Origin: a virus
Lineage: Duplodnaviria; Heunggongvirae; Uroviricota; Caudoviricetes
IMG/VR virus record: IMGVR_UViG_3300012352_000310
Coordinates: 1 to 64,000 of that record
Direction: 5' to 3' (one strand)
Length of the DNA: 64,000 bases
Numbering within the stretch: position 1 is the first letter of the stretch; each line of letters begins with the position of its first letter. Below, in pieces: positions 57-34,056 of this stretch. A program made the position numbers and the translations under genes. The notes beneath the pieces are model-generated. The model searched no databases. It saw only the letters and a program-made list of their open reading frames with translations, and was not told the DNA's origin.

Positions 57-133
57 TGGTCCCTCACCTCGGATTCGAACCGAGACCTCGATGATTAAGA
101 GTCATGTACGCTAACCGTTAACGCCAATGAGGG
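57..133 (-). tRNA. tRNA-Lys(CUU)-like
   Basis: rc cloverleaf: acceptor CCCTCAT/GTGAGGG, T-loop TTCGAAT, anticodon loop CUCUUAA, encoded CCA. Confidence 0.55.
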
Positions 134-597
134 AAGTTGTTCGTAATTACTTTTGTCTTTTACGTGCCAACCGGGACCAATACGGGATCCAAGTTGACAC
201 TAACGTTTACCACGTTTCATGTCAATCTCCATTTGAGTAAAATTAAAATAACAGGATAGCTTTTTTGCGTTTTTCAATTACAAGTTGAGTGCTTTTTAGT
301 TGCTGCAACTATCCTAGATGAGAACAGGATCCGCTTTCTTTTCAAGATATAGGTTGAAATTTTTAATTTGCGGTAAGGATCCTAAGAATTTAATTTGTAA
401 GTAGTTGCACCATCATTATAGCAACCATTCACCCGTGTAACAAGCTCGAGCGGGACTCGGTACGTCACTTGGGATTCATCCAGTCATGCAACCATTTTGC
501 CTTTAGTGGGATTCGAACCCATGACCTTCTACTGACCAGCACCTTCGAAGAATGCTGACCAGCGTGATTTCACTTGCTGACACTTACAAAACTTGAT

Positions 598-677
598 TGT
601 GTGTTGCAGGATTCGAACCTACATCCGGAGGTTTTACCCTCATGTAATGATGCCCTAAACATTTATACTAAACACAC
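598..677 (-). tRNA. aberrant tRNA-like element (perfect 7-bp acceptor + canonical T-arm, non-canonical central domain)
   Basis: acceptor GTGTGTT/AACACAC and GTAGG-TTCGAAT-CCTGC T-arm; no standard D/anticodon arms; no encoded CCA. Confidence 0.3.
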
Positions 678-683
678 AAAACT

Positions 684-759
684 TGGTGCGGGCTACAGGG
701 TTCGAACCTGCGACCTGAACGTTGGCAACGTTCCGCTCTACCAGCTGAGCTAAGCACGC
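684..759 (-). tRNA. tRNA-Gly(GCC)
   Basis: rc: D-arm GCTCAGCTGGTAGAGC, anticodon stem GAACG/CGTTC loop UUGCCAA, T-loop TTCGAAC, CCA encoded. Confidence 0.8.
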
Positions 760-766
760 ATTAAAT

Positions 767-841
767 TGGCGGCCTCAAGGGGTAACGATCCCCTTCTTTA
801 GCAGTGACAGTGCTACGTGCGTCCATGAACACTTTGAGGCC
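767..841 (-). tRNA. tRNA-Asp(GUC)
   Basis: rc: anticodon stem TAGCA/TGCTA loop CUGUCAC; acceptor GGCCTCA/TGAGGCC; CCA encoded. Confidence 0.75.
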
Positions 842-941
842 AAAATTTCTGAGTCGTACTTAATTACACGGCATATACGCCCGTCCGTGATGTTACGGTT
901 GCAAACTTACCTGCAGGACGCGATTGCAACTATCTTACATT

Positions 942-1016
942 TGGCGACTCGTGGGAGAATCGAACTCCCATCTACGGATAGACAATCCGCGATAATAGCC
1001 ATTATATGAACGAGCC
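942..1016 (-). tRNA. tRNA with GUC anticodon (second Asp-like copy, U37 unusual)
   Basis: rc: acceptor GGCTCGT/ACGAGTC, T-arm GGGAG..CTCCC, anticodon loop UUGUCUA. Confidence 0.5.
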
Positions 1017-1144
1017 ATGAATATGTGGCATTACGAACTTTAGCCGTACTTCTAACGCGAGTACCGAAAAGATCTACTGTGTGCAGACCCGAACAACACG
1101 CCTAGACCTTTTCTAGGATTGACAGCAACTGACGTTGCCGAACT

Positions 1145-1222
<78 letters not shown>

Positions 1223-1233
1223 AATAAGATAAA

Positions 1234-1319
1234 TGGTGGAGACGACTGGAGTCGAACCAGTAGTGCCATAAGGCGGCGGATTTACAGTCCACTGGGGTTA
1301 CCAATTTTCCTACATCTCC
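1234..1319 (-). tRNA. tRNA-Tyr(GUA), class II
   Basis: rc: anticodon stem GTGGA/TCCGC loop CUGUAAA, long variable arm, 86 nt, CCA encoded. Confidence 0.75.
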
Positions 1320-1327
1320 AAATTCTT

Positions 1328-1402
1328 TGGTAGCCAGTGGTGGTCTCGAACCACCGACCCACGCCTTATCAAGACGTTGCTCTACCCCTGAGCTAACTGG
1401 CC
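1328..1402 (-). tRNA. tRNA-Ile(GAU)
   Basis: rc: GCTCAGGGGTAGAGC D-arm, anticodon stem ACGTC/GGCGT loop UUGAUAA. Confidence 0.8.
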
Positions 1403-1408
1403 ATTTCT

Positions 1409-1501
1409 ACCATATTAAAACGCACTATCTACAGTTAAGACATGTGGGAAGTCTTCACTTGATAGTTCGTCACACCACCGACGCTTAAGCGTTTTAATAT
1501 G
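1409..1501 (-). ncRNA. structured spacer element (14-bp inverted repeat CCATATTAAAACGC/GCGTTTTAATATGG enclosing nested hairpins); possible small stable RNA
   Basis: perfect long-range inverted repeat with internal stems AAGAC/GTCTT and ACTATC/GATAGT, between two tRNAs. Confidence 0.3.
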
Positions 1502-1575
1502 GTACACCTAGAGGGAATCGAACCCTACGTTTCCGCCTTGAAAGGGCAGCGTCCTAACCGTTAGACGATAGGTGC
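1500..1575 (-). tRNA. tRNA-Glu(UUC)
   Basis: rc: D-arm GTCT..GGAC, anticodon stem CTGCC/GGCGG loop CUUUCAA, CCA encoded. Confidence 0.8.
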
Positions 1576-1576
1576 A

Positions 1577-1603
1577 AAGAAAAACTTTCGAATTTTTAAA
1601 GAG
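1577..1603. repeat. near-palindromic motif AAAGAAAAACTTTCGAATTTTTAAAGA (copy 1 of 2)
   Basis: same 27-nt element recurs at 5200-5226; each sits just upstream (minus-strand sense) of a tRNA sub-array and downstream of early promoters. Confidence 0.7.
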
Positions 1604-1629
1604 CTTTTGCTTTTCAGCAACTGAAGATG

Positions 1630-1661
1630 TATTATACACCATCAGCTAATTTATGTACAAC
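1630..1661 (-). promoter_or_regulatory. early sigma70-like promoter (consensus module) reading into tRNA sub-array 1
   Basis: plus ATTATAC..N..TGTACA = minus TTGTACA-N17-TGnTATAAT. Confidence 0.6.
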
Positions 1662-1666
1662 ACTTT

Positions 1667-1870
1667 TTACAGTGTATCGACTGTGCCCATCACGCCGCGA
1701 GTTCCACGACGAAAGTTGCTTACGCCTTGAGCCCAAGCAGTGTAGCGAGACTTATCAACTGAGAAAGTCTTTTCTAACTTCTTCGGCATGCGAGGAGCGC
1801 ACATCGTAACTTTGACACCATCAACGATGGTAACAACATCTGAGTACTTAGACTTACGTGCCATAATCAA
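1667..1870 (-). CDS. hypothetical small protein
   Basis: 67-aa ORF immediately downstream of consensus promoter 1897-1928 and conserved leader. Confidence 0.4.
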   Translation of the reverse strand: MIMARKSKYSDVVTIVDGVKVTMCAPRMPKKLEKTFSVDKSRYTAWAQGVSNFRRGTRGVMGTVDTL

Positions 1871-1896
1871 ACTCCTTGTTTATCAATCTATGGAGT

Positions 1897-1928
1897 AATT
1901 ATACAACACTTTTGATTATTTGTACACA
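1897..1928 (-). promoter_or_regulatory. early promoter module
   Basis: ATTATACAACACTTTTGATTATTTGTACA consensus. Confidence 0.6.
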
Positions 1929-1974
1929 GGTCTACGAAAAATTTTTCGTGTATCAGAAAGTGTACAGTTTTGAG

Positions 1975-2051
1975 TGGCGCGCCCGGAGGGATTCGAACCC
2001 CCGACATGCGGTGTAGAAGACCGCTGTTCTATCCAACTGAACTACAGGCGC
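1975..2051 (-). tRNA. tRNA-Arg(UCU)
   Basis: rc: GTTCAGTTGGATAGAAC D-arm, anticodon stem GCGGT/ACCGC loop CUUCUAC, CCA encoded. Confidence 0.8.
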
Positions 2052-2057
2052 ATATTC

Positions 2058-2297
2058 TTATCGTCTCTTAACCCAGCTATACTCTACACCATCTGGGCAC
2101 TTTCCATCTTTGATAGAATCAACTCCAGACTTTCCTATAGAGTTTGGATTTTCACTAACCATTGTCACAAAAGACATTCCTAACTTACGAAAGCCTTCTG
2201 CATAACGCAGCGCTTCGTCTAGAATTTCTAATTCATGACCATGAGAGACTCCAGTTACTGGATCAGTGTAGTACACTTTAAACATAAAAACTTTCAA
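2058..2297 (-). CDS. hypothetical protein embedded in tRNA array
   Basis: 79-aa minus ORF filling the gap between tRNA-Arg and tRNA-Leu. Confidence 0.3.
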   Translation of the reverse strand: MKVFMFKVYYTDPVTGVSHGHELEILDEALRYAEGFRKLGMSFVTMVSENPNSIGKSGVDSIKDGKCPDGVEYSWVKRR

Positions 2298-2299
2298 TT

Positions 2300-2384
2300 T
2301 GGTGCTCGAGGCCGGAATCGAACCGGCACGCCCGAAGGCGGCAGATTTTAAGTCTGCTGTGGCTACCGATTACACCACTCGAGC
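2300..2384 (-). tRNA. tRNA-Leu(UAA), class II
   Basis: rc: anticodon stem GCAGA/TCTGC loop CUUAAAA, variable arm GCCTTCGGGCGT, acceptor GCTCGAG, CCA. Confidence 0.8.
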
Positions 2385-2492
2385 ATAATAAATCAGGTTA
2401 CCGTGTTGCACCCTTTGTGCACGCTGCCGAGTTTTGGTGGCAATGTAAGGAATCGAACCTTAGAATTTGTTTGCTGAATGTAACCTATAACT

Positions 2493-2567
2493 TGGTGGTC
2501 GGTACTGGGATCGAACCAGTGACCTTCACAATGTCAATGTGATATTCTACCGCTGAAATAACCGACC
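2493..2567 (-). tRNA. tRNA-Val(GAC)
   Basis: rc: anticodon stem TCACA/TGTGA loop UUGACAU; acceptor GGTCGGT/ACCGACC. Confidence 0.65.
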
Positions 2568-2687
2568 ATATTGAAATACTCTCTCGACGTCAGGGGTCTT
2601 TTCATCGCGCTGGCTAAGCTGCTTCGTCATGTAGTCCCGGTTTGCCAACCGCTTAAGGCTAATGACCAATGATGAGAATACTTCAAT
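2567..2687 (-). ncRNA. structured spacer element (16-bp inverted repeat ATATTGAAATACTCTC/GAGAATACTTCAATAT); possible small stable RNA
   Basis: long-range perfect IR enclosing ~90 nt between two tRNAs; analogous to 1409-1501 element. Confidence 0.3.
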
Positions 2688-2688
2688 A

Positions 2689-2763
2689 TGGTACCTCGTG
2701 ACAGTTTCGAACTGCCGACCCTCTCCGTGTAAAGGAGACGCTCTACCACTGAGCTAACGAGGC
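2689..2763 (-). tRNA. tRNA-Val(UAC)
   Basis: rc: GCTCAGTGGTAGAGC D-arm, anticodon stem TCTCC/GGAGA loop UUUACAC. Confidence 0.8.
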
Positions 2764-2782
2764 ATAATGAAAACAGGATCGT

Positions 2783-2855
2783 TTTCTTGGACGGGATTTG
2801 AACCCGCTACAGTTTCCTTATGAGGGAAATGCTCTACCTATGAGCTACCATGATG
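2783..2855 (-). tRNA. tRNA-like with CAU anticodon, imperfect acceptor (possible pseudogene)
   Basis: rc: GCTCATAGGTAGAGC D-arm, TTTCC/GGAAA stem loop CUCAUAA, T-arm GCGGG..CCCGT; acceptor 5/7 pairs, no CCA. Confidence 0.4.
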
Positions 2856-2881
2856 GTTTTTGCTGAACCGATCCTAAAACT

Positions 2882-2956
2882 TGGGGAGTCGTACGAGAAT
2901 CGAACTCGTGATAGCGGAATCACAACCCGCGGTTTTGCCACTAAACTAACAACTCC
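2882..2956 (-). tRNA. tRNA-His(GUG)
   Basis: rc: anticodon loop UUGUGAU; extra G-1 pairing with C73 (His hallmark); CCA encoded. Confidence 0.85.
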
Positions 2957-2964
2957 ATAAAACT

Positions 2965-3048
2965 TGGTGCCCCAGGAGAGACTCGAACTCTCACGCCTTT
3001 CGGCACTGGCTTCTAAGACCAGCGTGTCTACCATTCCACCACCAGGGC
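2965..3048 (-). tRNA. tRNA-Leu(UAG), class II
   Basis: rc: anticodon stem CTGGT/GCCAG loop CUUAGAA, variable arm TGCCGAAAGGCGTG. Confidence 0.8.
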
Positions 3049-3091
3049 ATATGTGTTATTATACACAAATTCTTTATTTTTGTAAATCAAT

Positions 3092-3169
3092 TGGAAGCTA
3101 GGGTCGGATTTGAACCGACGGTTTTACGGATTTGCAATCCGTTGCATTGGGCCGCTCTGCCACCTAGCC
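3092..3169 (-). tRNA. tRNA-Cys(GCA)
   Basis: rc: anticodon stem ACGGA/TCCGT loop UUGCAAA; 3-bp D-stem. Confidence 0.75.
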
Positions 3170-3176
3170 ATAGAAT

Positions 3177-3253
3177 TGGTGCTCAGGGAGGGACTCGAAC
3201 CCTCAGGATCTTGATTTTGAGTCAAGCACGTCTACCAATTGCGTCACCTGAGC
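3177..3253 (-). tRNA. tRNA with CAA anticodon on a Trp-like class I body
   Basis: rc: D-loop CAATTGGTAGA and T-loop GTTCGAGTC as in bacterial tRNA-Trp; perfect anticodon stem CTTGA/TCAAG, loop CUCAAAA. Confidence 0.65.
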
Positions 3254-3255
3254 TT

Positions 3256-3346
3256 TGGCAGTGAGTGAGAGATTCGAACTCTCGTGCCGGCATAACCGAC
3301 CATCACCTTTCCAAGGTGCGCCAATAGGCCACTCTGGCAACTCACT
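3256..3346 (-). tRNA. tRNA-Ser(GGA), class II
   Basis: rc: anticodon loop UUGGAAA, long variable arm, 91 nt, CCA encoded. Confidence 0.75.
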
Positions 3347-3352
3347 ATATCT

Positions 3353-3428
3353 TGGTGCCGAAGACTGGATTTGAACCAGTGACACACGGATTTTCAATCC
3401 GCTGCTCTACCAACTGAGCTACATCGGC
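3353..3428 (-). tRNA. tRNA-Phe(GAA)
   Basis: rc: GCTCAGTTGGTAGAGC D-arm, anticodon stem GCGGA/TCCGT loop UUGAAAA. Confidence 0.8.
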
Positions 3429-3436
3429 ATAAATTC

Positions 3437-3526
3437 TGGCGGTGCGACTGAGACTCGAACTCAGAAACCGGCTTTCACCGATCGACGGATTAGCAATCCG
3501 CTCCAATACCATTATGGGACCGCACC
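3437..3526 (-). tRNA. tRNA-Ser(GCU), class II
   Basis: rc: anticodon stem GCGGA/TCCGT loop UUGCUAA, long variable arm. Confidence 0.8.
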
Positions 3527-3536
3527 ATTACTAAAC

Positions 3537-3628
3537 TGGTACCTCGGCCGAGAGTCGAACTCGGATGAACCAATTATCTGTTGCTTACGGGATATAAATC
3601 CGCCGTTTTACCATTAAACTACCGAGGT
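3537..3628 (-). tRNA. class II tRNA with ambiguous anticodon loop UUUAUAU (UAU?)
   Basis: perfect acceptor ACCTCGG/CCGAGGT and T-arm; anticodon stem GCGG/CCGT with A.C closing mismatch; 92 nt. Confidence 0.45.
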
Positions 3629-3649
3629 GTTAATGTAAACTAAAAATTT

Positions 3650-3724
3650 TGGTGGACCGACGGGGAATCGAACCCCGACCCGAGGCTTGCAAAGCCACTG
3701 TGCTCCCGTTATCACTATCAGCCC
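3650..3724 (-). tRNA. tRNA-Ala(UGC)
   Basis: rc: anticodon loop UUUGCAA; acceptor GGGCTGA/TCGGTCC with G3.U70 wobble (Ala identity). Confidence 0.75.
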
Positions 3725-3737
3725 AAAACTTAAAACT

Positions 3738-3815
3738 TGGTCTCCACGGTTGGACTCGAACCAACAGCCTCCTGACTCCAGATCAGGCCGTCTACCAGAT
3801 TGACATTACGCAGAG
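3738..3815 (-). tRNA. tRNA-Pro(UGG)
   Basis: rc: anticodon stem CCTGA/TCAGG loop UCUGGAG. Confidence 0.65.
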
Positions 3816-3823
3816 ATGAAACT

Positions 3824-3899
3824 TGGTGCCGCCCACTAGAATCGAACTAGTTCCTGTGGATTTTCAGTCCACCGTACACACCAGTTATACGAGAGCGGC
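3824..3899 (-). tRNA. tRNA with GAA anticodon (second Phe-like copy)
   Basis: rc: anticodon stem GTGGA/TCCAC loop CUGAAAA; acceptor GCCGCTC/GGGCGGC. Confidence 0.55.
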
Positions 3900-3907
3900 T
3901 ATAAAAT

Positions 3908-3986
3908 TGGCTCCGGATGTGGGGATCGAACCCACCTAACCATTGATTAACAGTCAAGCCCATGCACCTTGCTCGGGTTTTCCGGA
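3908..3986 (-). tRNA. tRNA-Asn(GUU)
   Basis: rc: anticodon loop CUGUUAA; D-stem CCCG/TGGG. Confidence 0.65.
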
Positions 3987-3996
3987 ATAGAAATTA

Positions 3997-4067
3997 GGCC
4001 CTCGTGGATGGATTTGAACCACCGACCACTGCGCGCTTGTTGCTCTCCCAGACTGAGCTACACGAGG
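3997..4067 (-). tRNA. tRNA-like with perfect acceptor and D-arm but collapsed anticodon arm (pseudogene?)
   Basis: acceptor CCTCGTG/CACGAGG, GCTC..GAGC D-arm, T-arm present; only 18 nt between D- and T-arms; CCA not encoded. Confidence 0.3.
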
Positions 4068-4074
4068 ATTGAAT

Positions 4075-4148
4075 TGGTGCCCCATGACAGAATCGAACTG
4101 CCGTAACCTGATTACAAAACAGGTGTAATACCATTATACTAATAGGGC
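4075..4148 (-). tRNA. tRNA-Thr(UGU)
   Basis: rc: anticodon loop UUUGUAA; acceptor GCCCTAT/ATGGGGC. Confidence 0.7.
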
Positions 4149-4153
4149 AAATT

Positions 4154-4227
4154 TGGTAGCCTGTAGAGGTTACGATCCTCTGTCGCTCGATTATCAGTCG
4201 AGTGCTCTACCATTGAGCTAACGGGCT
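4154..4227 (-). tRNA. tRNA-Ile(GAU), second copy
   Basis: rc: GCTCAATGGTAGAGC, anticodon stem CTCGA/TCGAG loop CUGAUAA. Confidence 0.7.
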
Positions 4228-4304
4228 ATTATAAAACAGGATGCTTTTTGTCGCTAGACAACCAAAAGTTTAGCTTTGAGTTTTGCTGTAGTCATCCTAA
4301 AACT

Positions 4305-4379
4305 TGGTATCGCATACGGGTAACGATCCCGTCTAGTCAGCTTGAAAGGCTGATGACCTCACCTGAAGTCGAATGCGAT
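4305..4379 (-). tRNA. tRNA-Glu(UUC), second copy
   Basis: rc: anticodon stem TCAGC/GCTGA loop CUUUCAA; acceptor ATCGCAT/ATGCGAT. Confidence 0.7.
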
Positions 4380-4673
4380 ATTGAAATTGGTGGAGATGGT
4401 GGGATTCGAACCGCACACAAGAACTTTTACAGAGTTAGAGCTATAGGGTTGCAGAACTTATCCTTGTCAGGATAATTTTTTTGCTATGCTATGCTACCAT
4501 TACATCACATCTCCAAAATCTTTCTAAAGCACATCTACCAGAATTGAACTGGTGACCGGAAGGCACTGCACATCCAGCTATGATCCACATAAGAGCCTAG
4601 CCTCAGCTCCGATATGCTTTAGAAAAATGACTGACAATTTATCTCATTGTACGCCATCAGTCAAGGCGATTCT

Positions 4674-4757
4674 TGGTGGAGTGAGTAGGGATCGAACCTA
4701 CCTGCCGTGAGGCCACCGGGTTACAGCCGGCTAGAACACCATTGTTCCATTCACTCC
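4674..4757 (-). tRNA. tRNA-Tyr(GUA), class II, second copy
   Basis: rc: anticodon stem GCCGG/CCGGT loop CUGUAAC, long variable arm. Confidence 0.65.
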
Positions 4758-4762
4758 ATGTT

Positions 4763-4854
4763 TGGCGGAGAGCAGAGGAGTCGAACCCCATCCCATTTCT
4801 GAGAACCTGGTTTTCAAGGCCAGTCGCAGGACCATCCCCGCTGCATTACTCTCC
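4763..4854 (-). tRNA. tRNA-Ser(UGA), class II
   Basis: rc: anticodon loop CUUGAAA, long variable arm, 92 nt. Confidence 0.7.
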
Positions 4855-4860
4855 ATGTCT

Positions 4861-4937
4861 TGGCGCGCCCCACAGGATTCGAACCTGCATACCCCAACTT
4901 CGTAGGATGGTACATTCTCCAGTTATGCTAAAGACGC
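4861..4937 (-). tRNA. tRNA-Arg(ACG)
   Basis: rc: anticodon stem CCATC/GTTGG loop CUACGAA; acceptor GCGTCTT/GGGGCGC with wobbles. Confidence 0.7.
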
Positions 4938-4947
4938 GTAAATTTGT

Positions 4948-5025
4948 TGGCAGAGGTAACTGGATTCGAACCAGTGATCACGATTTCAAAGACCGTTGCT
5001 TTAGGCCAGACTAAGCTATACCCCA
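4948..5025 (-). tRNA. tRNA-Gln(UUG)
   Basis: rc: D-arm GCTT..AAGC, anticodon stem ACGGT/ATCGT loop CUUUGAA. Confidence 0.65.
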
Positions 5026-24610: not shown

Positions 24611-24940
24611 TTAAAATGGAATGTCATCATCCATATCAGCAAAAACTACTGGCTCGCGCTTTGGTGCGACATAAGTTTCGTCATGGAAGTTATTGAACAC
24701 TTCTTGATAACCGCCTGACCAATCACTTGATCGCAGCCTGTCTTGATTGTCACAAAGTATTTCAACCTTATCTAAGCTAGAGTGCGGATTCCAAGGATGA
24801 TGCACAGTGACATATCCATTGTAGAACGTACCATCCCAGCAGCCGTTGACAACCCAGAAGTCAAAGTGTGTAGCACTGTATTCTTGCTTGACATTGACCA
24901 GCAATTCAGGACGTTCTTTAGTACCTAACATCAGTCTCAT
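24611..24940 (-). CDS. hypothetical protein
   Basis: start at MRLMLG ATG; 109 aa. Confidence 0.45.
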   Translation of the reverse strand: MRLMLGTKERPELLVNVKQEYSATHFDFWVVNGCWDGTFYNGYVTVHHPWNPHSSLDKVEILCDNQDRLRSSDWSGGYQEVFNNFHDETYVAPKREPVVFADMDDDIPF

Positions 24941-25097
24941 TCTCAGCTCCAAGCAATTCTAAGTTTCCAGATGATGATTTCATAGATGGTCATCCCTTGG
25001 TAATTTGTAGAGCCAAGTCTAAACAGATGATTAACTTGTTCGTCTTTATGAGACTTGGTATACCACAGTCCATCACTCGACCATTCAAACTTAATCA

Positions 25098-25313
25098 TCA
25101 TTCAACTCCAAAATCTTCTTTCATCTGCTCAACAGCATCAGAACCTAGACCATAACGCTCAGCTTTGTCTATACATTCCAGAACAATCAACTCGGCGAAC
25201 TTTTCATTATATGCGTAAAGCCACATACCGTCTCGGGTATAGGAACCACGAGGTTGGGTTTCATCAGCATACTTACCAGCCTCTAAGGCAAGTTCTCGAA
25301 TTCGTTCGTTCAT
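25098..25313 (-). CDS. small protein, FAELIVxECI paralog family member 1
   Basis: 71 aa MNERIRELALEAG...FAELIVLECIDKAERYG...DFGVE. Confidence 0.5.
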   Translation of the reverse strand: MNERIRELALEAGKYADETQPRGSYTRDGMWLYAYNEKFAELIVLECIDKAERYGLGSDAVEQMKEDFGVE

Positions 25314-25452
25314 TCTTGTTCCATCTTACTAAAGTCAGGATCCTTGCTGTACCCAATATTAAAATTACCAAGTTTCCACCAAATGTAGCGTCCACCATAA
25401 TCACAGGTTTGTACTATAAATCCAAGAAACTTAAAATGTGTAGTCCATTCAA

Positions 25453-25698
25453 TCATTCTTCAACTCCGAAATGTTCTTTGATATCTTTGATGTGTGTCAT
25501 ACTGCGTATAAACTTTTCTGTTTTAGTACCATCACGGGTAATACCCATTTGAATAGTTAGAATACATTCCCTAACAATCAACTCGGCGAACTTTTCCGGG
25601 TCAAACCTAATACCCAGTGTCGCACCGTCTGGTCCGACATTCACATATGTATCTGTAACAAATGACTGTTCATAAAGTTTCTGTAACTGTTCGTTCAT
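25453..25698 (-). CDS. small protein, FAELIVxECI paralog family member 2
   Basis: 81 aa MNEQLQKLYEQS...FAELIVRECILT...HFGVEE. Confidence 0.5.
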   Translation of the reverse strand: MNEQLQKLYEQSFVTDTYVNVGPDGATLGIRFDPEKFAELIVRECILTIQMGITRDGTKTEKFIRSMTHIKDIKEHFGVEE

Positions 25699-25913
25699 TC
25701 TTCAACTCCGAAATGATATTTGATTCGGTCGTGATAGATTTCACCATCAACTGTTCCGTCTCCTACAATAAGCATACATTCCTTGACAATCAACTCGGCG
25801 TGTTTGGCGGAGGCAATTGCATAGTAAATGTCGTTGTATCGACGTTCAGCAGGCACTACGCTATCTGCATAGTGGATAGCCTGCATATATAGTTCTTGAA
25901 TACGTTCGTTCAT
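25695..25913 (-). CDS. small protein, paralog family member 3
   Basis: start at MNERIQELYMQA; HAELIVKECMLIV...HFGVEE. Confidence 0.45.
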   Translation of the reverse strand: MNERIQELYMQAIHYADSVVPAERRYNDIYYAIASAKHAELIVKECMLIVGDGTVDGEIYHDRIKYHFGVEE

Positions 25914-26103
25914 TCTCAATTCCTTAAAACAACGAAACCGGTGGGATCTTTGATCCACAATCTCTCTTGAGAATATGCTGATACTTCTCTGGATGATCCT
26001 TCATATCCTGAAGTCTTTTATAGAATCGTTCTTCAATCTCTTGATCACGGCAAGGAGCATTGAAGAAGTTACGAATCTTTTCAAAAATGTTCATCAAAAC
26101 CGC

Positions 26104-26388
26104 TTAGTTCTTGTCAGGCAGCGCCGGACTTTTTAGCTTACTCAGAGCATTCATAGCTTGAATCAGACCACTCTTAATGCCAACATGGATACCCACAGAG
26201 CGAGCATCCATTCCCTCGGTACTCTTGTTATTCTCAGAATACCACAGCTTACGGCATTCATCGATACACTCTTGTACAACCGTATCAACCAGAGCTTCAG
26301 CTTCTTCGTAGCCAATCTGAGCCTCATAAGCATTTGAATCAGGATCTAGTCTAAAGTTTATCACTTCATCAATCATGTTTTTACTCAT
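26104..26388 (-). CDS. small protein, divergent paralog (VVQECIDE motif)
   Basis: start at MSKNMIDEV; ...EALVDTVVQECIDECRKLWYS. Confidence 0.4.
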   Translation of the reverse strand: MSKNMIDEVINFRLDPDSNAYEAQIGYEEAEALVDTVVQECIDECRKLWYSENNKSTEGMDARSVGIHVGIKSGLIQAMNALSKLKSPALPDKN

Positions 26389-26543
26389 AACAAACTCCAA
26401 ATCAGAAATGCAACGAAGCAAATCTCTAAAACTCCAAAGAGAACTACTATAGCAAGATTAGTAAGTCCCAGATCTTGTATTTTCCACAGTAGTTCTCTCA
26501 ACATATCAAAATATCTCTCTCGATTTTTGGCCTTAGTACCATC

Positions 26544-26567
26544 TCGTAGAAAACGGGTGGTAGGGGG
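26544..26567. repeat. G-rich motif copy 2
   Basis: TCGTAGAAAACGGGTGGTAGGGGG. Confidence 0.7.
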
Positions 26568-26627
26568 TAGACATCAGTAGGTCATAGAGGAAAATCAGTT
26601 GATTCACTTTTTGCCATAAAGGCCACT

Positions 26628-26650
26628 CGCCAGAAACGGGTGGATGGGGG
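26628..26650. repeat. G-rich motif copy 3 (variant)
   Basis: CGCCAGAAACGGGTGGATGGGGG. Confidence 0.6.
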
Positions 26651-26774
26651 CTAGCTTCTAGAAGCACCTAGCTAAACACCCACATGATAAACAGAAGCAG
26701 CACGGCAAGGCCAGGGTTACCAGTGAACACTAGCATCAGAGCTACTATAGCTGAGAAGAAGCCAAGGTCTGAGT

Positions 26775-27056
26775 TCATTTGCGGTACACAGCGAAGCTAG
26801 TGGCATCAGACTTCAAGCAGGTGGATTGAGCCGAGTAGGCAGAGCGCTTGTAGTTAGAGTAGCCATTCACGCCCTTCATGATGCGACCAATGGAAGCTTT
26901 ACGAGGACCACGATAGCATACGCGTACTGCGATACCAGCAGCTTTGTAGCTACGGCGTACCAGATCCAGCATCTCCATAGGAATACCTTTAGCGAGGGCA
27001 GCCTCACCGATGGCGGGGAACATAGCTTGGATGATGGTGGTGTTCAGAGTAGTCAT
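26775..27056 (-). CDS. hypothetical protein
   Basis: 93-aa ORF with promoter module upstream. Confidence 0.45.
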   Translation of the reverse strand: MTTLNTTIIQAMFPAIGEAALAKGIPMEMLDLVRRSYKAAGIAVRVCYRGPRKASIGRIMKGVNGYSNYKRSAYSAQSTCLKSDATSFAVYRK

Positions 27057-27079
27057 TTGATTTCCTTAGTCTATGGATA

Positions 27080-27111
27080 GATTATACAACAGATTTGATT
27101 TATTGTACAAC
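27080..27111 (-). promoter_or_regulatory. early promoter module
   Basis: GATTATACAACAGATTTGATTTATTGTACA. Confidence 0.6.
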
Positions 27112-27116
27112 TATTC

Positions 27117-27314
27117 TTACAGCGTTGCATTAAGCTTAGCTGCAGTACCATAGTCACGGATCCATTGACGCAGGCCACGAGAAGCACTCTCGATCATAGC
27201 TTGACTGTGGAACATACAACGGAAGAAGCCATACGCGTAGCCCAGCTTACTATAGGGCTTCCAGAACTGCTCACGGAGAGCGATGTGTTCTTTGATGGCT
27301 TCAATCTTGGTCAT
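27117..27314 (-). CDS. hypothetical protein (tandem duplicate copy A)
   Basis: 65 aa; identical to 27375-27572 product. Confidence 0.55.
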   Translation of the reverse strand: MTKIEAIKEHIALREQFWKPYSKLGYAYGFFRCMFHSQAMIESASRGLRQWIRDYGTAAKLNATL

Positions 27315-27337
27315 TTGGTTTCCTTAGTCTATGGATA

Positions 27338-27369
27338 GATTATACAACAGATTTGATTTATTGTACAAC
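27338..27369 (-). promoter_or_regulatory. early promoter module (duplicated copy)
   Basis: identical to 27080-27111. Confidence 0.6.
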
Positions 27370-27374
27370 TATTC

Positions 27375-27572
27375 TTACAGCGTTGCATTAAGCTTAGCTG
27401 CAGTACCATAGTCACGGATCCATTGACGCAGGCCACGAGAAGCACTCTCGATCATAGCTTGACTGTGGAACATACAACGGAAGAAGCCATACGCGTAGCC
27501 CAGCTTACTATAGGGCTTCCAGAACTGCTCACGGAGAGCGATGTGTTCTTTGATGGCTTCAATCTTGGTCAT
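27375..27572 (-). CDS. hypothetical protein (tandem duplicate copy B)
   Basis: 65 aa identical to copy A. Confidence 0.55.
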   Translation of the reverse strand: MTKIEAIKEHIALREQFWKPYSKLGYAYGFFRCMFHSQAMIESASRGLRQWIRDYGTAAKLNATL

Positions 27573-27595
27573 TTGGTTTCCTTAGTCTATGGATA

Positions 27596-27627
27596 GATTA
27601 TACAACAGATTTGATTTATTGTACAAC
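27596..27627 (-). promoter_or_regulatory. early promoter module
   Basis: GATTATACAACAGATTTGATTTATTGTACA. Confidence 0.6.
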
Positions 27628-27633
27628 TATTCT

Positions 27634-27906
27634 TTACATAGACCAGTAGGTCTCAGAGGCAGGATTGCAGCACCAAGGAGTGTCAGCAGGAATTGTAACA
27701 GGCTCACCAGTCATCAGGTTCTTGACGGTGATGGTCTCAGAAGCCTTGTCTTCAGCGATGGCTTCCAGCATGGCAGCTTTGGCATCGGTCTTGTAGCGGA
27801 AGCGTTGGCACCAGTTGTCGTTACAGAAGAGGTCCCAACCGTCCTTATAGTCACGGCCCTTAGAGTTCATGCTATAGGCTTGGGAGATGGTGTAAACTTT
27901 AGTCAT
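27634..27906 (-). CDS. hypothetical protein
   Basis: start at MTKVYTIS directly after conserved leader. Confidence 0.45.
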   Translation of the reverse strand: MTKVYTISQAYSMNSKGRDYKDGWDLFCNDNWCQRFRYKTDAKAAMLEAIAEDKASETITVKNLMTGEPVTIPADTPWCCNPASETYWSM

Positions 27907-27930
27907 TTGGTTTCCTTGATTTGATGGATC

Positions 27931-27962
27931 AATTATACCATGAATTTGATTATTTGTACACC
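27931..27962 (-). promoter_or_regulatory. early promoter module
   Basis: AATTATACCATGAATTTGATTATTTGTACA. Confidence 0.6.
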
Positions 27963-28273
27963 GGTTCGGCAAATAATTGTAACAGAGCTCGAGTGCACTC
28001 AGATGGATGACTATGGGTAGACATCAAATCAAGGAACTAGAAACCATCTGAGTCCACCGAGGCTGCAGAACTGTACACTTTAGTATTCAGTACGACCGAT
28101 CAAACGAGAAACCAAGGTATTCATTCTTCGAGGCCAAGCTCCTTTAGAGTGAGCCTGAGATCTTGTAGTTGCTTGGGTGTAAGCTTACAGACCGGCACCA
28201 TCTTGCCTTCCATCTTGATGTTCAACCAACCGGTGCCAGAGATCATGTAGAGTACAGTCATTGTAGTACCTCC

Positions 28274-29185
28274 TTAAGCGCAGAGAACGTATTCAGCCAT
28301 CTGCTTCCAGCTAGAACCAGCCGATGCCTTGATCTTGGTGACTTGGATCAGAGTACGCAGGGAGATTTCCTTGGCAACATCCTTCAGTTCGCGGATCAGT
28401 TCCAGAGCATCCAGCTTGTCAGCCATCTCAAACTCTTCCATGAACTCAGGAGACTGAACGATGAAGGACATACGATCGATCTTCTGGTCTTCGTTCATGC
28501 TCAGGTCGATCATCATAGAACGGCTACGGATAGCTTGGTCGATGTCGTCTTGAGACATGTTGGAGATGAAGACAACCTTACCAGTGAAGTTGAAGCTACG
28601 TGGCAGGTCTTCGTCACGCATATCAGCGTTCCAAGAGATGATACGCTTGCCGTAGGAGTCCAGAGCACCCTTCAACAGGTTGAGGGCAACAGCATCTTTC
28701 AGAACAGCGTCGCAGTCGTCGAACACGATCACACCACCGTTGTTCTCAAACAGAGTACGATAGAGACCCTTAGCGGTAGAGTAACCCTTCACTTGAACGA
28801 AGACCTTCTCACGACGTACAACATCACCAACTTGGAACTCACCCAGTTCAGACATGTCCTTGTAGCCAGCTTCAGCGAGAGTCTTCAGCACAGTGTAAGA
28901 CTTACCCAGACCACCTTGACCAGTGATCACTGCAGATGCTTGAACACCAGAAGCAACCATGTTCACGAGCTTCTCAACGAAGTCAAAACGAGTGTTGATG
29001 TCAAACTTGTCCGAAGACTTAGGAGCTTGAGTGTTCGCGATCTGATCGTAGGTGGCTTTGATGCCAGTGATCTTCTTGTACATGAACTCGATGTAGTCCT
29101 TCTTCGAGGTCTTGAACTTGTTGCCGTCGATGTTGCAGCTGTACTTGTTGGAAGATTTGTCGAAGGAGATGGTCACTGTAGTCAT
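28274..29185 (-). CDS. P-loop ATPase (AAA-like), function unknown
   Basis: 303 aa; Walker A TGQGGLGKSYT, Walker B VVFDDCD. Confidence 0.6.
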   Translation of the reverse strand: MTTVTISFDKSSNKYSCNIDGNKFKTSKKDYIEFMYKKITGIKATYDQIANTQAPKSSDKFDINTRFDFVEKLVNMVASGVQASAVITGQGGLGKSYTVLKTLAEAGYKDMSELGEFQVGDVVRREKVFVQVKGYSTAKGLYRTLFENNGGVIVFDDCDAVLKDAVALNLLKGALDSYGKRIISWNADMRDEDLPRSFNFTGKVVFISNMSQDDIDQAIRSRSMMIDLSMNEDQKIDRMSFIVQSPEFMEEFEMADKLDALELIRELKDVAKEISLRTLIQVTKIKASAGSSWKQMAEYVLCA

Positions 29186-29221
29186 GATGTATTTCGTTGC
29201 CTTGTTTGATTTGATGGATCT

Positions 29222-29252
29222 ATTATACTACGAATTTGATTATTTGTACACA
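29222..29252 (-). promoter_or_regulatory. early promoter module
   Basis: TATTATACTACGAATTTGATTATTTGTACA. Confidence 0.6.
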
Positions 29253-29269
29253 GGTTTGTGCAAATAAAT

Positions 29270-29461
29270 TCAGAAGCCACCGTAGACGGCAATAGTCTCC
29301 AGACGGTCAAGCTCGGCGTTCAGCTCAGCATCGTTCATGCCAGATAGACGATCCATGTAGTTCTGAGAGTAAGCTCCTTGCTCGATGGCATGGGTGAGGA
29401 TCAGTTCGATGGTGTCGTTTCGGTTCATGTTCATGATGTATTCCTTGATTTGATGGATCAA
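29270..29461 (-). CDS. hypothetical protein
   Basis: 63-aa ORF. Confidence 0.4.
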   Translation of the reverse strand: MIHQIKEYIMNMNRNDTIELILTHAIEQGAYSQNYMDRLSGMNDAELNAELDRLETIAVYGGF

Positions 29462-29491
29462 TTATACATCAAATTTGATTTATTGTACACA
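29460..29491 (-). promoter_or_regulatory. early promoter module
   Basis: AATTATACATCAAATTTGATTTATTGTACA. Confidence 0.6.
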
Positions 29492-29494
29492 ACT

Positions 29495-29719
29495 TTATGC
29501 AAACAGATCACCGTACATCTCTTCGTACGCAGCATCGAAGTCTTCACGAATCCACTCGATCTTGTACCCGTTCAGAGCGTACTCGTCGGCCATGACTTGC
29601 AATTTACGTACCGCCTGTTTAGCAGTCAGACCCTCATTCGCCATCAGGCTCAGGTTGCTACAGTAGGCAAAGTTGTTGCTGTCTTTGTGAGCGCTAACTT
29701 GTACGAATTGCTTAGTCAT
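29495..29719 (-). CDS. hypothetical protein
   Basis: 74-aa ORF. Confidence 0.45.
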   Translation of the reverse strand: MTKQFVQVSAHKDSNNFAYCSNLSLMANEGLTAKQAVRKLQVMADEYALNGYKIEWIREDFDAAYEEMYGDLFA

Positions 29720-29723
29720 GTGA

Positions 29724-29957
29724 TTACTTACCCATCTTGTTGTAGACTTGAGACTTACCAGACCACTTGGGGATGATCACGTTGGCAAGGAAAGCCGAGA
29801 AGTCAAACTTAGCACCGGACTCGCCAGCATCCTTACGAGGACGACCACGACCACGCTTCACAGCGGTGACAGGAATAACACCAGTCTCGGCAACTTCGCC
29901 AGAGTAGAAGCCACGATCAGCGGTGTGACGGATGCCGGTAGAAGTCTTGATGATTGC
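29724..29957 (-). CDS. small basic protein with AT-hook-like RGRGRPRK motif
   Basis: start at MAIIKTSTG after leader; GRGRPRKD. Confidence 0.45.
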   Translation of the reverse strand, partial: AIIKTSTGIRHTADRGFYSGEVAETGVIPVTAVKRGRGRPRKDAGESGAKFDFSAFLANVIIPKWSGKSQVYNKMGK

Positions 29958-29980
29958 CATGTTCTTAGTCCTTTGTTTGA

Positions 29981-30012
29981 TTTGATAGATCAATTATACC
30001 ACGAATTTGATT
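29981..30012 (-). promoter_or_regulatory. early promoter module
   Basis: AATTATACCACGAATTTGATTTTCTGTACA. Confidence 0.6.
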
Positions 30013-30027
30013 TTCTGTACACAGGTC

Positions 30028-30252
30028 TCAAAATTTATTTTTGAGGGCCATAGCACCAGAAGCCATGATCGCGAGACCAACCAGAGCGATCCCAGTCTGG
30101 ACCAGAACAGAAGCAGCAGGATCTGCGTCCAGAGTGCCAACAGCACCGAAGGTGATCAGGAAGCCGAGGAAGAAACGAATGGTGCCTTGCATGATGTAGT
30201 CCTTTGTTTGATTTGATGGATCAATTATACCACAGGTTTTGAGGTCTGGCAC
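30028..30252 (-). CDS. small two-TM membrane protein
   Basis: 74-aa ORF (possibly starting at internal MQGTIRFF). Confidence 0.4.
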   Translation of the reverse strand: MPDLKTCGIIDPSNQTKDYIMQGTIRFFLGFLITFGAVGTLDADPAASVLVQTGIALVGLAIMASGAMALKNKF

Positions 30253-30318
30253 ACTGTCTTCAAAAATATTTGCATAGTGTATCTTTTATGATACACTGTA
30301 CACTTTGGTTAACAATCT

Positions 30319-30538
30319 TCAATACTTCTTGCCACCGTACTTCTCGTTCCAGTCGTACCCAGCGTGATATGCTTCGATCTCCTCAGGAGACATCATGCTC
30401 ATCGAGATCTTTGGAGACATTGCAGTGCCACCTTCATAGAAGTGTGGATCACGTGGACGGTCGTACCAGCTGTCGGCAGATCCACGATCGAAAGGACCAC
30501 CGTGGCGGGTGTCATACTTGTCTCGAGATTCAACCATC
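30319..30538 (-). CDS. hypothetical protein
   Basis: start trimmed to internal ATG to avoid 100-nt overlap. Confidence 0.35.
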
Positions 30539-30547
30539 GCTGTCTCC

Positions 30548-30751
30548 TTAGCCGAGGAAGTCGTAAGAAGTTTCGCTCTGACCACACTTGCCGAAAGACA
30601 TCGCAGCAGTGACACGGTCGCACAGTGCAAAGAACACATCAGTAGCAATCTTGGAGTCTACAGTCTCCAGGAACAGAGTGCCATTGAAGAAGTAAGCATG
30701 CACATCAGTAACTTCTTCAACAACCGCCAAAACTTTTTTCTCGAAACCCAT
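30548..30751 (-). CDS. hypothetical protein
   Basis: start at MGFEKKV after leader. Confidence 0.4.
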   Translation of the reverse strand: MGFEKKVLAVVEEVTDVHAYFFNGTLFLETVDSKIATDVFFALCDRVTAAMSFGKCGQSETSYDFLG

Positions 30752-30782
30752 AACAAACTCCTTGTTTATCAATCTATGGAAT

Positions 30783-30814
30783 AATTATACAACATAATTT
30801 GATTTTTGTACACA
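30783..30814 (-). promoter_or_regulatory. early promoter module
   Basis: AATTATACAACATAATTTGATTTTTGTACA. Confidence 0.6.
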
Positions 30815-30959
30815 GGTCTCCAAAATATTTTTATCGATGATCTGGCCACCATAGATGGTCTGATAGCACTCAGCAGTTTTCAGGATGTAGAATTGCATGA
30901 TACGGCCAGTGGAGGTGATCAGAGTGTAACGCATTAGTCTTCCTATCAATCTATGGGTA

Positions 30960-30991
30960 GATTATACATCGAATTTGATTTTCTGTACACA
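30960..30991 (-). promoter_or_regulatory. early promoter module
   Basis: GATTATACATCGAATTTGATTTTCTGTACA. Confidence 0.6.
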
Positions 30992-31002
30992 TTTTTATGC
31001 CA

Positions 31003-31147
31003 GAAAAAACCCTTTAGAATCAATAACTTAGAGCACTATCTCCAAAACCGCACAAAAGTGACAAAAATCCGTGTATAAACCATCACAGTGCACAAAACCG
31101 CACTTTTGTGGTAGAAAAAACCCTTTAGAATCAATAACTTAGAGCAC
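31003..31147. repeat. 35-bp direct repeats (31003-31037 and 31113-31147) flanking an inverted repeat
   Basis: AGAAAAAACCCTTTAGAATCAATAACTTAGAGCAC twice; between them CACAAAAGTG/CACTTTTGTG inverted repeat and AAAACCGCAC direct repeats. Confidence 0.7.
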
Positions 31148-31181
31148 CCTAAAAGTGTACTTTGTGCATTTTCGAACAATT

Positions 31182-31703
31182 CTACGCGTAGTGGAGCAAG
31201 AGTGACTTTACGTAGTCCTCAGTGGAGTCTCCAAGGTCATGAGCGTGACAGAAAACCGCCTCATCACCGAACTTTGCTAGCTTCCGACCGGCATCATCGT
31301 TGTCACAGACCGCTACTACTCGTCTATTGAGACAACTCAACCAGTTCTGCAGGTCCCACCCAGTGTTGTTACTCAAGACGGCCAGAGCAGAGTAGCCTCG
31401 TTGTGTCAATCTGCATGCATCGAACACACCCTCACATAGGAATACAGTACCACCAAATGCCAGTGACTCTACACCCCATACGGCGAGTGTTGGTAGCTTC
31501 CTATGCGTGAAGTACTTACCTTCCTTGGGGTTGTTCTGAGGCTTCTTCTCACCTTCTGGCCTGTACTGCTGGTAGCCAACTAACTGACCACTCAAGTTCC
31601 AGAGATAGAATGTAGCTATCCGCTCGACGTCATCAACCATCGGTCGGTGTAGCTCCAGATCTAAGTGTCTGGACTTGAGGTGATCAGTCATTGAAGGAAG
31701 CAT
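31182..31703 (-). CDS. Toprim-domain protein
   Basis: 173 aa; conserved Glu in CEGVFDA and DxD in VCDNDDAGRKLA (Toprim signature). Confidence 0.55.
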   Translation of the reverse strand: MLPSMTDHLKSRHLDLELHRPMVDDVERIATFYLWNLSGQLVGYQQYRPEGEKKPQNNPKEGKYFTHRKLPTLAVWGVESLAFGGTVFLCEGVFDACRLTQRGYSALAVLSNNTGWDLQNWLSCLNRRVVAVCDNDDAGRKLAKFGDEAVFCHAHDLGDSTEDYVKSLLLHYA

Positions 31704-31852
31704 TAGTCTTTCGTCTTAGTCGTTACAAAGAATAGAGCTGTGAGTGCAAAGGTCCACATCGACCAGTCATGCACCTGTACCAAGTAAGCAGTACCACCAA
31801 TCAGTGCTGCGTCGTAGGTCAGTACCAGAGCTGCGATCAGTATGTCTTTCAT
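31703..31852 (-). CDS. small membrane protein
   Basis: internal start MKDILIAALVL; longer ORF would run through promoter 32007-32038. Confidence 0.35.
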   Translation of the reverse strand: MKDILIAALVLTYDAALIGGTAYLVQVHDWSMWTFALTALFFVTTKTKD

Positions 31853-32006
31853 TCGTTGTCCACTTGAATCTTGTCGCCACGCAGGACCCATACAAAAGCC
31901 ATAAACACCGAGCTGAGCCAGTCTGCCTCGACTTGACGCATCATACGGTAGCCTTCCATGAAACCAATCTCTCTGTCCATGTCTTGATCCTTTCAATCTA
32001 TGGATC

Positions 32007-32038
32007 AATTATACACCGAATTTGATTTTCTGTACATA
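32007..32038 (-). promoter_or_regulatory. early promoter module
   Basis: AATTATACACCGAATTTGATTTTCTGTACA. Confidence 0.6.
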
Positions 32039-32121
32039 GGAACTTTAGTATTCAGAAACTACAAAGGAGCCCTTTCGAGCTCCTTCTTAGTCTAGATCCA
32101 TTAGTGGAATTCCTAGAGATA

Positions 32122-32153
32122 CATTATACCAATCTCTCTAGATTCTGTACAGG
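32122..32153 (-). promoter_or_regulatory. early promoter module
   Basis: CATTATACCAATCTCTCTAGATTCTGTACA. Confidence 0.5.
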
Positions 32154-33181: not shown

Positions 33182-33619
33182 TTAGTCTTTAAGTTCTTCT
33201 ATATGATACTGGTCAAATACTAGATCAAAGTTTGGTACTGGTATGCTTGTATCTGTATGATTAGATGCTAGTGTGATATGTGGTTTATACTCTGGATAGT
33301 CGTAGCTTGCTCCAAGTGCTCTTGTTTCCTTATGGAATTGTTGTAGAGTATCGGATTCAAGTTTAAGTACGAATGCATTTGAGTCAAAAGATTCGTATCC
33401 AGTCGCTTTTGCTGTAATGGGTAGCTTTGGTTGATGGGATTCTACGTTTGGACATGGAGTTTTTGAGTATACAACCGTACAGTGAAGATCTTCTTTACTG
33501 GTTGGCTGATCAATATACTGGGATATGAACTCGTGAAGCTGATCTTGTGATTCTTTGGATAGCTTTAGGGATGCATACGTACCATATTGGTGATCTACGT
33601 ATTCTTTAAATGTAATCAT
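33182..33619 (-). CDS. hypothetical protein
   Basis: 145-aa minus ORF. Confidence 0.5.
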   Translation of the reverse strand: MITFKEYVDHQYGTYASLKLSKESQDQLHEFISQYIDQPTSKEDLHCTVVYSKTPCPNVESHQPKLPITAKATGYESFDSNAFVLKLESDTLQQFHKETRALGASYDYPEYKPHITLASNHTDTSIPVPNFDLVFDQYHIEELKD

Positions 33620-34056
33620 AACTTACCTTTGATGTGATTTCCATGCACGCGAATGGATATGTTGCCATTGTACCAGTCGTCGGATTCAAGTACTCTATGG
33701 CTGAATTGTTCTCTTGCTTCAATATACGAGCACAGTGCCTTGGAGTTGCAGAGGAATAGTATCTCGCGCTTGAAGTTTTCTTTACCAAGGAGCTCGATGT
33801 CCTTGTTTAGATGTTCACTGGAGCCATAATATTCTTTCCAGTCGGAGTCGATCTTGAATCGAACCTTCTTTTTCTTTTTGGTACCGTTCTTGAGTGTAAC
33901 GGTCTGCTGCTTGGTACGTGAGAACTTAGCTAGCTTCTTACCAATATACTTACGACCTGTGAGCAGATTGCTTATCAGATACACGAAGCCGACGGTATCA
34001 TCAGGCAACTCATCGATCGGTTCATTATTATACAGCCACATAAAGAAAAAGTCCAT
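33616..34056 (-). CDS. GIY-YIG homing endonuclease (Seg-like)
   Basis: 146 aa; GFVYLISNLLTGRKYIGKK = GIY-(10)-YIG motif, downstream catalytic Arg/Glu. Confidence 0.75.
   Translation of the reverse strand: MDFFFMWLYNNEPIDELPDDTVGFVYLISNLLTGRKYIGKKLAKFSRTKQQTVTLKNGTKKKKKVRFKIDSDWKEYYGSSEHLNKDIELLGKENFKREILFLCNSKALCSYIEAREQFSHRVLESDDWYNGNISIRVHGNHIKGKL

Follow-up and report, generated by a model that had tools for sequence, protein, structure and literature searches.

Tandem duplications of lambda are known in phage genetics, and poxvirus amplifications have been labelled 'genomic accordions'. In T4-type phages, PeSL cassettes, in which modules of a promoter and a stem-loop flank ORFans, have been described (Arbiol, Comeau and Krisch 2010, PMC2839356; Comeau et al. 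2014, PMC4122927), and recombination between these cassettes leads to deletions, insertions, replacements and mini-circles, including a dimer (PMC2839356, PMC4122927). The word 'duplication' is absent from the 2010 paper (PMC2839356), so that a fixed tandem duplication, the reciprocal product, is unreported there. Tandem segmental amplifications of T4 arise readily by recombination at short homologies, as in the case of tifA versus ToxIN (PMC9391042), and SegB drives the amplification of anti-defence loci in T4 and T6 (PMC13096335). The tandem amplifications of T4 rII and of genes 16-18 (Kumagai et al. 1993; Wu et al. 1991) and the poxvirus case of Elde et al. (2012) are considered here as they are cited in PMC9391042.

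The DNA analysed here (hereafter, the window) is the whole stretch of 64,000 nucleotides at positions 1 to 64,000 of IMG/VR virus record IMGVR_UViG_3300012352_000310. A preliminary description had reported two identical 258-bp tandem units, each including a 65-aa ORF, a promoter and a leader, and had interpreted the unit as a gene-plus-promoter cassette. Both statements hold: direct comparison of 27117-27374 with 27375-27632 gave 0 mismatches over 258 bp, and each copy has a promoter, a ribosome-binding site and the ORF. The array is a bit larger than the span then given, of which the coordinates are one valid phase. Identity between each base and the base 258 positions further on is unbroken from 27061 to 27376, giving a periodic block at 27061-27634 (574 bp, 2.22 units); with Tandem Repeats Finder, the array was assigned to 27052-27634 (period 258, 2.3 copies, 99% matches). 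The sole mismatch in the array is position 27060 (T in the gene orientation) against C at 27318 and 27576, and this variant base sits in the ribosome-binding region GGAAA(T/C)CAAATG. A perfect period-258 run of 316 bases cannot be of chance origin, and the array is the sole long perfect repeat within the 64-kb window. It consists of a promoter module, a gene, a promoter module, a gene and a promoter module in this order, and the repeat boundaries coincide with the module edges. With G for the 65-aa gene, X and Y for its upstream and downstream neighbours, and P1 to P3 for the promoter modules, the order of transcription on the minus strand is X, P1, G, P2, G, P3, Y. The features are as follows.

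27052..27634, minus strand: entire tandem array, with three promoter modules and the 65-aa gene twice (2.2-2.3 units of 258 bp); period 258, perfect over 27061-27634, mismatch at 27060.
27634..27906, minus strand: gene X, upstream neighbour, 90 aa; assigned as an ORF, joined directly to Y in zero-copy alleles.
27573..27634, minus strand: P1, between the X stop codon and the upstream G; -35 TTGTACA at 27626..27620, -10 TATAAT at 27602..27597, ribosome-binding site AAGGAAA at 27583..27577, variant base C at 27576.
27375..27572, minus strand: upstream copy of gene G, 65 aa, ATG start, stop codon included; assigned from the ORF, tblastn (100%), homologues, codon changes and the structural model.
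27315..27376, minus strand: P2, between the two copies of G; -35 at 27368..27362, -10 at 27344..27339, variant base C at 27318.
27117..27314, minus strand: downstream copy of gene G, identical to the upstream copy; assigned from the ORF, direct comparison and tblastn (100%).
27057..27118, minus strand: P3, upstream of Y; -35 at 27110..27104, -10 at 27086..27081, variant base T at 27060.
26775..27056, minus strand: gene Y, downstream neighbour, 93 aa; assigned as an ORF.

Each unit carries about 60 nt of upstream sequence with TTGTACA-N17-TATAAT, and the layout of a module is the preceding stop codon, 7 nt (P2 and P3) or 8 nt (P1), TTGTACA, 17 nt, TATAAT, 13 nt, AAGGAAA, 4 nt and ATG. When one mismatch at most was allowed, TTGTACA-N17-TATAAT was found at 23 sites of the window, all on the minus strand (0.14 sites expected by chance), and 13 strong promoter matches lie at 27-32.4 kb, each ahead of small ORFs. 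The score for TGTACA-N17-TATAAT was 10/12 at P1, P2 and P3 alike. P1, P2 and P3 are mutually 99-100% identical, and the other modules in the window are 61-86% alike. Conservation of the modules reaches far past the -35 and -10 hexamers (consensus, tgTGTACAaaAAATcaaat.tGtTGTATAAT..ATCcATaga; 23 sites, densest at 27081-32152); the conserved spacer may reflect a recent spread by recombination, or it may be a binding site for a regulator. A search of 27052-27634 on the minus strand for a terminator-like hairpin found none. In RNA folding of the module, the -35 region (the palindromic TGTACA) pairs with the -10 region when transcribed (z = -2.5), and this pairing was not taken as a terminator. Elsewhere in the window, a strong terminator-like hairpin (GAAGGAGCTC-GAAA-GGGCTCCTTT) lies just before the promoter module at 32036-32008, which makes a PeSL-like composite at 32086-32008 on the minus strand.

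The product of G is a real, conserved small protein, since 18 clusters of homologues (61-98% identity) were found in metagenomes, the substitutions are concentrated at third codon positions, and the AlphaFold model is a confident one of four helices (mean pLDDT, 97). The homologues share 23 invariant columns. Scans of the 65-, 90- and 93-aa proteins (G, X and Y) against Pfam and PHROGs gave no match; tblastn of G in 50,697 phage records and a single-protein search of G in IMG/VR were likewise negative. Searching IMG/VR with a G profile detected two distant one-copy loci on contigs of 161 and 231 kb. Profile comparison with PDB sequences yielded a chance-level match only, and Foldseek of the model against PDB and BFVD gave nothing with E below 1.

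The source of the window is a large uncultured phage, which is not demonstrably T4-type. The genes in the window include those for DNA ligase, NAMPT, ribonucleotide reductase (RNR) subunits, thymidylate synthase, cytidyltransferases, methyltransferases and a virion protein, and their best protein matches are scattered across unrelated phages. No T4 core gene was identified within the 64-kb window, megablast of 26000-29000 against the 50,697 phage records gave no match, and a scan of GTDB genomes found no relative and hence no clue to the host. The window also carries 30 tRNA genes in 5 kb (57-5025, minus strand), with duplicated Asp-GTC, Glu-TTC, Tyr-GTA, Phe-GAA, Ile-GAT and Met-CAT genes and also Ile-TAT. 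A 303-aa AAA-type ATPase (28274-29185, minus strand; PHROG 1250, E 9e-62) is encoded two genes upstream of the duplication and is kept at the loci of relatives (289-303-aa versions in L001, L003 and L005). About 6 kb upstream of the duplication, there are a homologue of the anti-CBASS protein Acb1 (33182-33619, minus strand; Pfam PF23474, E 1.9e-28) and a SegE-like GIY-YIG homing endonuclease (33616-34056, minus strand; PF19835, E 4.5e-35). The Acb1 ORF is located directly downstream of the SegE-like ORF, and the two overlap by 4 nt.

On the other side of the array, a 1.29-kb segment (approximately 24618-25908) that holds several small ORFs is shared by the window and L022 (a contig of run ERR3489832) and is missing from the 98%-identical L001. 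Its edges are a 20-nt direct repeat, TTTTAAGGAATT(G/A)AGAATGAA, that takes in a start codon and its ribosome-binding site, which makes it the second short-repeat-mediated indel of the region. Three adjoining diverged paralogues (25098-25958, minus strand; 71, 81 and 72-87 aa; 36-42% identical) share MNERI..ELY, AELIV.EC and HFGVEE, and are older tandem duplications of the same region. A fourth ORF (105 aa; the row of paralogues possibly extends to 26421) aligns weakly with the three.

The copy number of G was then compared among relatives. All of the 21 related loci fetched carry exactly one G, and two copies occur in the window alone; for near-identical strains, the count of one is less than certain, as short-read assembly could collapse a perfect duplication. 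The one-copy loci L001 and L003, from two crustacean-metagenome samples, match the window at 98% identity over 5-9 kb, with the order X, promoter module, G, promoter module, Y. Their two modules flanking G have a perfect run of 49 nt in common, whereas that in the window is 58 nt. In distant relatives, G lies behind a promoter, often with a GC-rich stem-loop before it (the stem-loop and promoter are directly upstream of G in L008-L013 and L020), and the next gene follows G directly. Among the loci compared, promoter modules on both sides of G are restricted to this clade, and this arrangement makes G a cassette that can be excised and duplicated.

Contigs with no copy of G were found by exact look-up of X. 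L023 (SRR36525972) and L025 (SRR36526254), from independent runs, are 97.6-98% identical to the window and have X, a single module and Y, with G absent. The module at this junction reads TGTAA-GAAACTAGTGTACA-AGTAATCAAATCTG..., with a switch from GAAACTAGTGTACA to AGTAATC: its 5' part matches the module before G in L001 (GAAACTAGTGTACAATAAATC), it then carries the AGTAATC variant of the module after G in L001 (GAATAGTTGTACAAGTAATC), and the change of module type falls inside GTACAA. The junction is the hybrid expected from recombination between the two modules flanking G. We also considered the zero-copy contigs as k=31 path artefacts. This is unlikely, because the modules share 49 nt in one-copy strains, so that k=31 contigs would break there as they do in ERR3489832 (see below); the switch takes place within 6 nt. 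The preliminary description had suggested that the duplication may be polymorphic in the phage population, and relatives at 97.6-98% identity with one copy (L001 and L003) or none (L023 and L025) bear this out. It is thus likely that alleles with zero, one and two copies of G exist, the two-copy state being known from one assembly only.

Two other contigs, L002 (end, 1435) and L004 (end, 658), come from separate ENA assemblies (k119 and k141), and each breaks off 48 nt past the G stop codon. The break point is inside the downstream promoter module, and L004 starts within the module upstream of X. These ends suggest strain-level branching at the modules. They were also considered as a sign of duplication and set aside: the branch of a duplication would be expected another 9 to 17 nt along, and the last base of L004 is a variant one, so that strain variation explains the breaks at least as well as duplication does. 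The junction of the G end, a module and the G start was present in none of the independent contigs searched, and the pattern of the G 3' end, the module and the next ATG had 0 hits in IMG/VR. The run and assembly accessions were also searched for in the literature, where no mention of them was found.

An identical strain is represented in run ERR3489832, of which two k=31 contigs are 100% identical to the window, namely, L024 (29489..27605) and L022 (27090..25314). L024 ends at 27605, having entered the shared block (first base, 27634) by exactly 30 nt, and L022 starts at 27090, which precedes the T/C variant at 27060 by exactly 30 nt; a k=31 graph is expected to break at just these points. 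The two contigs independently confirm the repeat boundaries, the unusual sequence of P1 and the C/T variant. They are silent on one versus two copies, because no 31-mer spans the 58-nt core.

These break points also bear on the possibility, raised as a caveat in the preliminary description, that the second copy is an expansion artefact, that is, that one real G lies between modules sharing 58 bases and the assembler traversed the loop of the graph twice. At k below approximately 59, the graph of X, a module with C, G, a module with T, and Y is the same as that of the two-copy arrangement, including the C/C/T pattern; the breaks of the ERR3489832 contigs at exactly these points, the zero divergence between the copies and the presence of two copies in no other assembly are all consistent with such a traversal. 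Against it, the 64-kb window has no other suspicious perfect repeat, and natural recombination at the locus is demonstrated by the zero-copy hybrid allele. Moreover, an assembler with k above approximately 60, or one that threads reads longer than 60 nt, needs real reads over the G end, the module and the G start to build P2, and modern pipelines use a larger k or read threading as standard; building P2 in this way would have required real junction reads. We therefore regard the expansion artefact as unlikely. It is probable that the phage genome itself, and not just its assembly, has two copies. An error in the opposite direction, in which the true array has at least three units and the assembler gave the minimal two-copy path, is highly unlikely: with a repeat unit longer than k, the shortest loop-back path would always have two copies, and laboratory-selected T4 and T6 amplifications reach many copies and are seen as coverage peaks (PMC9391042, PMC13096335), but the sequence of the window demands no more than two.

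We favour a real tandem duplication of very recent date in the small-gene region of the phage, in which a self-contained cassette of an early gene (a strong sigma-70-type promoter, a ribosome-binding site and the 65-aa ORFan) was doubled, probably by unequal homologous recombination between promoter modules. The same module of approximately 60 nt on both sides of G would be the substrate for misaligned homologous recombination, in which the module upstream of G on one genome copy would exchange with the module downstream of G on another, either by unequal crossing-over or by template switching during recombination-dependent replication. One of the reciprocal products would have lost G and have a hybrid module at the junction, as L023 and L025 appear to have; the other would have a promoter, G, a hybrid promoter, G and a promoter, to which the window would correspond. 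The middle module, P2, is a novel junction made by the duplication; the downstream module would have supplied its 5' part, and the upstream module its 3' part. C in P1, C in P2 and T in P3 is exactly the pattern predicted by a crossover inside the module. Since the zero-copy hybrid allele shows that the locus recombines in nature, the reciprocal duplication is biologically expected.

A plain single crossover does not explain P1. The upstream module of L001-L004 begins with GAAACTAGTGTACA, whereas P1 of the window begins with A-GAATAGTTGTACA (the downstream type and one A); the 5' part of P1 is of the type found downstream of G in one-copy relatives, and an extra A follows the stop codon of X. 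Thus, an earlier conversion step must be assumed, in which the lineage of the window would have homogenised its two modules by gene conversion or by a prior exchange (the order of the steps is inferred). The homogenised modules match perfectly over 58 nt, compared with 49, and exchanges of this kind would thereby become more frequent. In the preliminary description, recombination between the flanking promoter modules had been offered as a possible origin, and the near-identity of these modules and the zero-copy junction as a hybrid of the two both speak for it. The same description had inferred a very recent duplication from the identity of the copies, with which our analysis agrees; the zero divergence fits a recent origin or continuing homogenisation.

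A real duplication may also have been formed by another route, either by reintegration of an excised circular cassette (G and one module) or by slippage at the microhomology TGTAA. As for the circle, mini-circles, one of which was a dimer, were detected for ORFan cassettes flanked by promoter modules (PMC2839356), although its product would be identical in sequence to that of unequal crossing-over and the two are indistinguishable here. As for slippage, X and G both end with TGTAA directly before the module, and the identity of P1 and P2 extends nearly as far as the X stop codon, which end points at TGTAA would explain if the upstream module was already of that type; however, a perfect homology of 58 nt is a far better substrate than one of 5 nt. 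Both routes still require the earlier step for the extra A and the downstream-type 5' part of P1, and we consider them very unlikely. With unequal recombination between the modules as the preferred origin, the two separately promoted copies of G would give approximately twofold early expression of the protein, and the array should be unstable, with units lost or gained through the same recombination. The reciprocal duplication product is seldom encountered in finished genomes, owing to its instability and to the tendency of short-read assemblers to collapse it.

As for the biological meaning, the locus may be a natural genomic accordion, in which G would be a host-takeover or anti-defence factor under selection for dose, the alleles with zero, one and two copies would mirror the defences of the hosts, and the modules would tune the copy number. 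We regard this as quite unlikely at present; the sole hint of an anti-defence role for G is its neighbourhood, with Acb1 approximately 6 kb away. If it is true, the promoter modules would be both expression signals and built-in recombination sites, and, if the copy number is selected, the 65-aa ORFan would be a candidate for a dosage-sensitive host-takeover or anti-defence gene. The locus offers a natural example of repeated promoter modules that add, remove and amplify small accessory genes in an uncultured phage, with the absent, single and double allelic states and a mapped hybrid junction at one locus. For annotation, it should be flagged as copy-number uncertain.

Compared with the known systems, the array shares with the classical phage and poxvirus duplications the features of unstable direct repeats, their gain and loss by homologous recombination and a possible effect on dosage; these cases were found through a selectable phenotype, whereas the present one was found in sequence. 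The likeness to the T4 and T6 amplifications is that the window has a head-to-tail repeat of a small early gene with its promoter, which would have been made by recombination at short homologies (the repeats of T4 and T6 raise gene dosage), and that a SegE-like GIY-YIG endonuclease and an Acb1 homologue lie approximately 6 kb upstream of it. The T4 and T6 amplifications, however, were selected in the laboratory and have many copies with end points in microhomologies of 6-10 bp, whereas the window has two copies with end points in a 58-nt promoter module, recognised by sequence alone. The window resembles the PeSL cassettes in that strong sigma-70-like promoters stand directly before small ORFans where gene content varies, in that the ORFan between two modules is subject to an indel whose crossover lies within the module (the hybrid in L023 and L025), and in that G of distant relatives follows a GC stem-loop combined with a promoter. 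It differs in that the modules around G have no terminator-like stem-loop, the -35 element starting 7-8 nt after the preceding stop codon, and in that the PeSL hosts are T4-type myoviruses, with hyperplastic regions between their blocks of core genes, and the phage of the window is not demonstrably T4-type; for these two reasons, the modules were not filed as PeSLs. By analogy, the modules around G would nevertheless work like PeSLs, and the duplication in the window is a known type of event, namely, the repeat-mediated duplication or deletion of a promoter-ORFan cassette in an accessory region of a phage genome.
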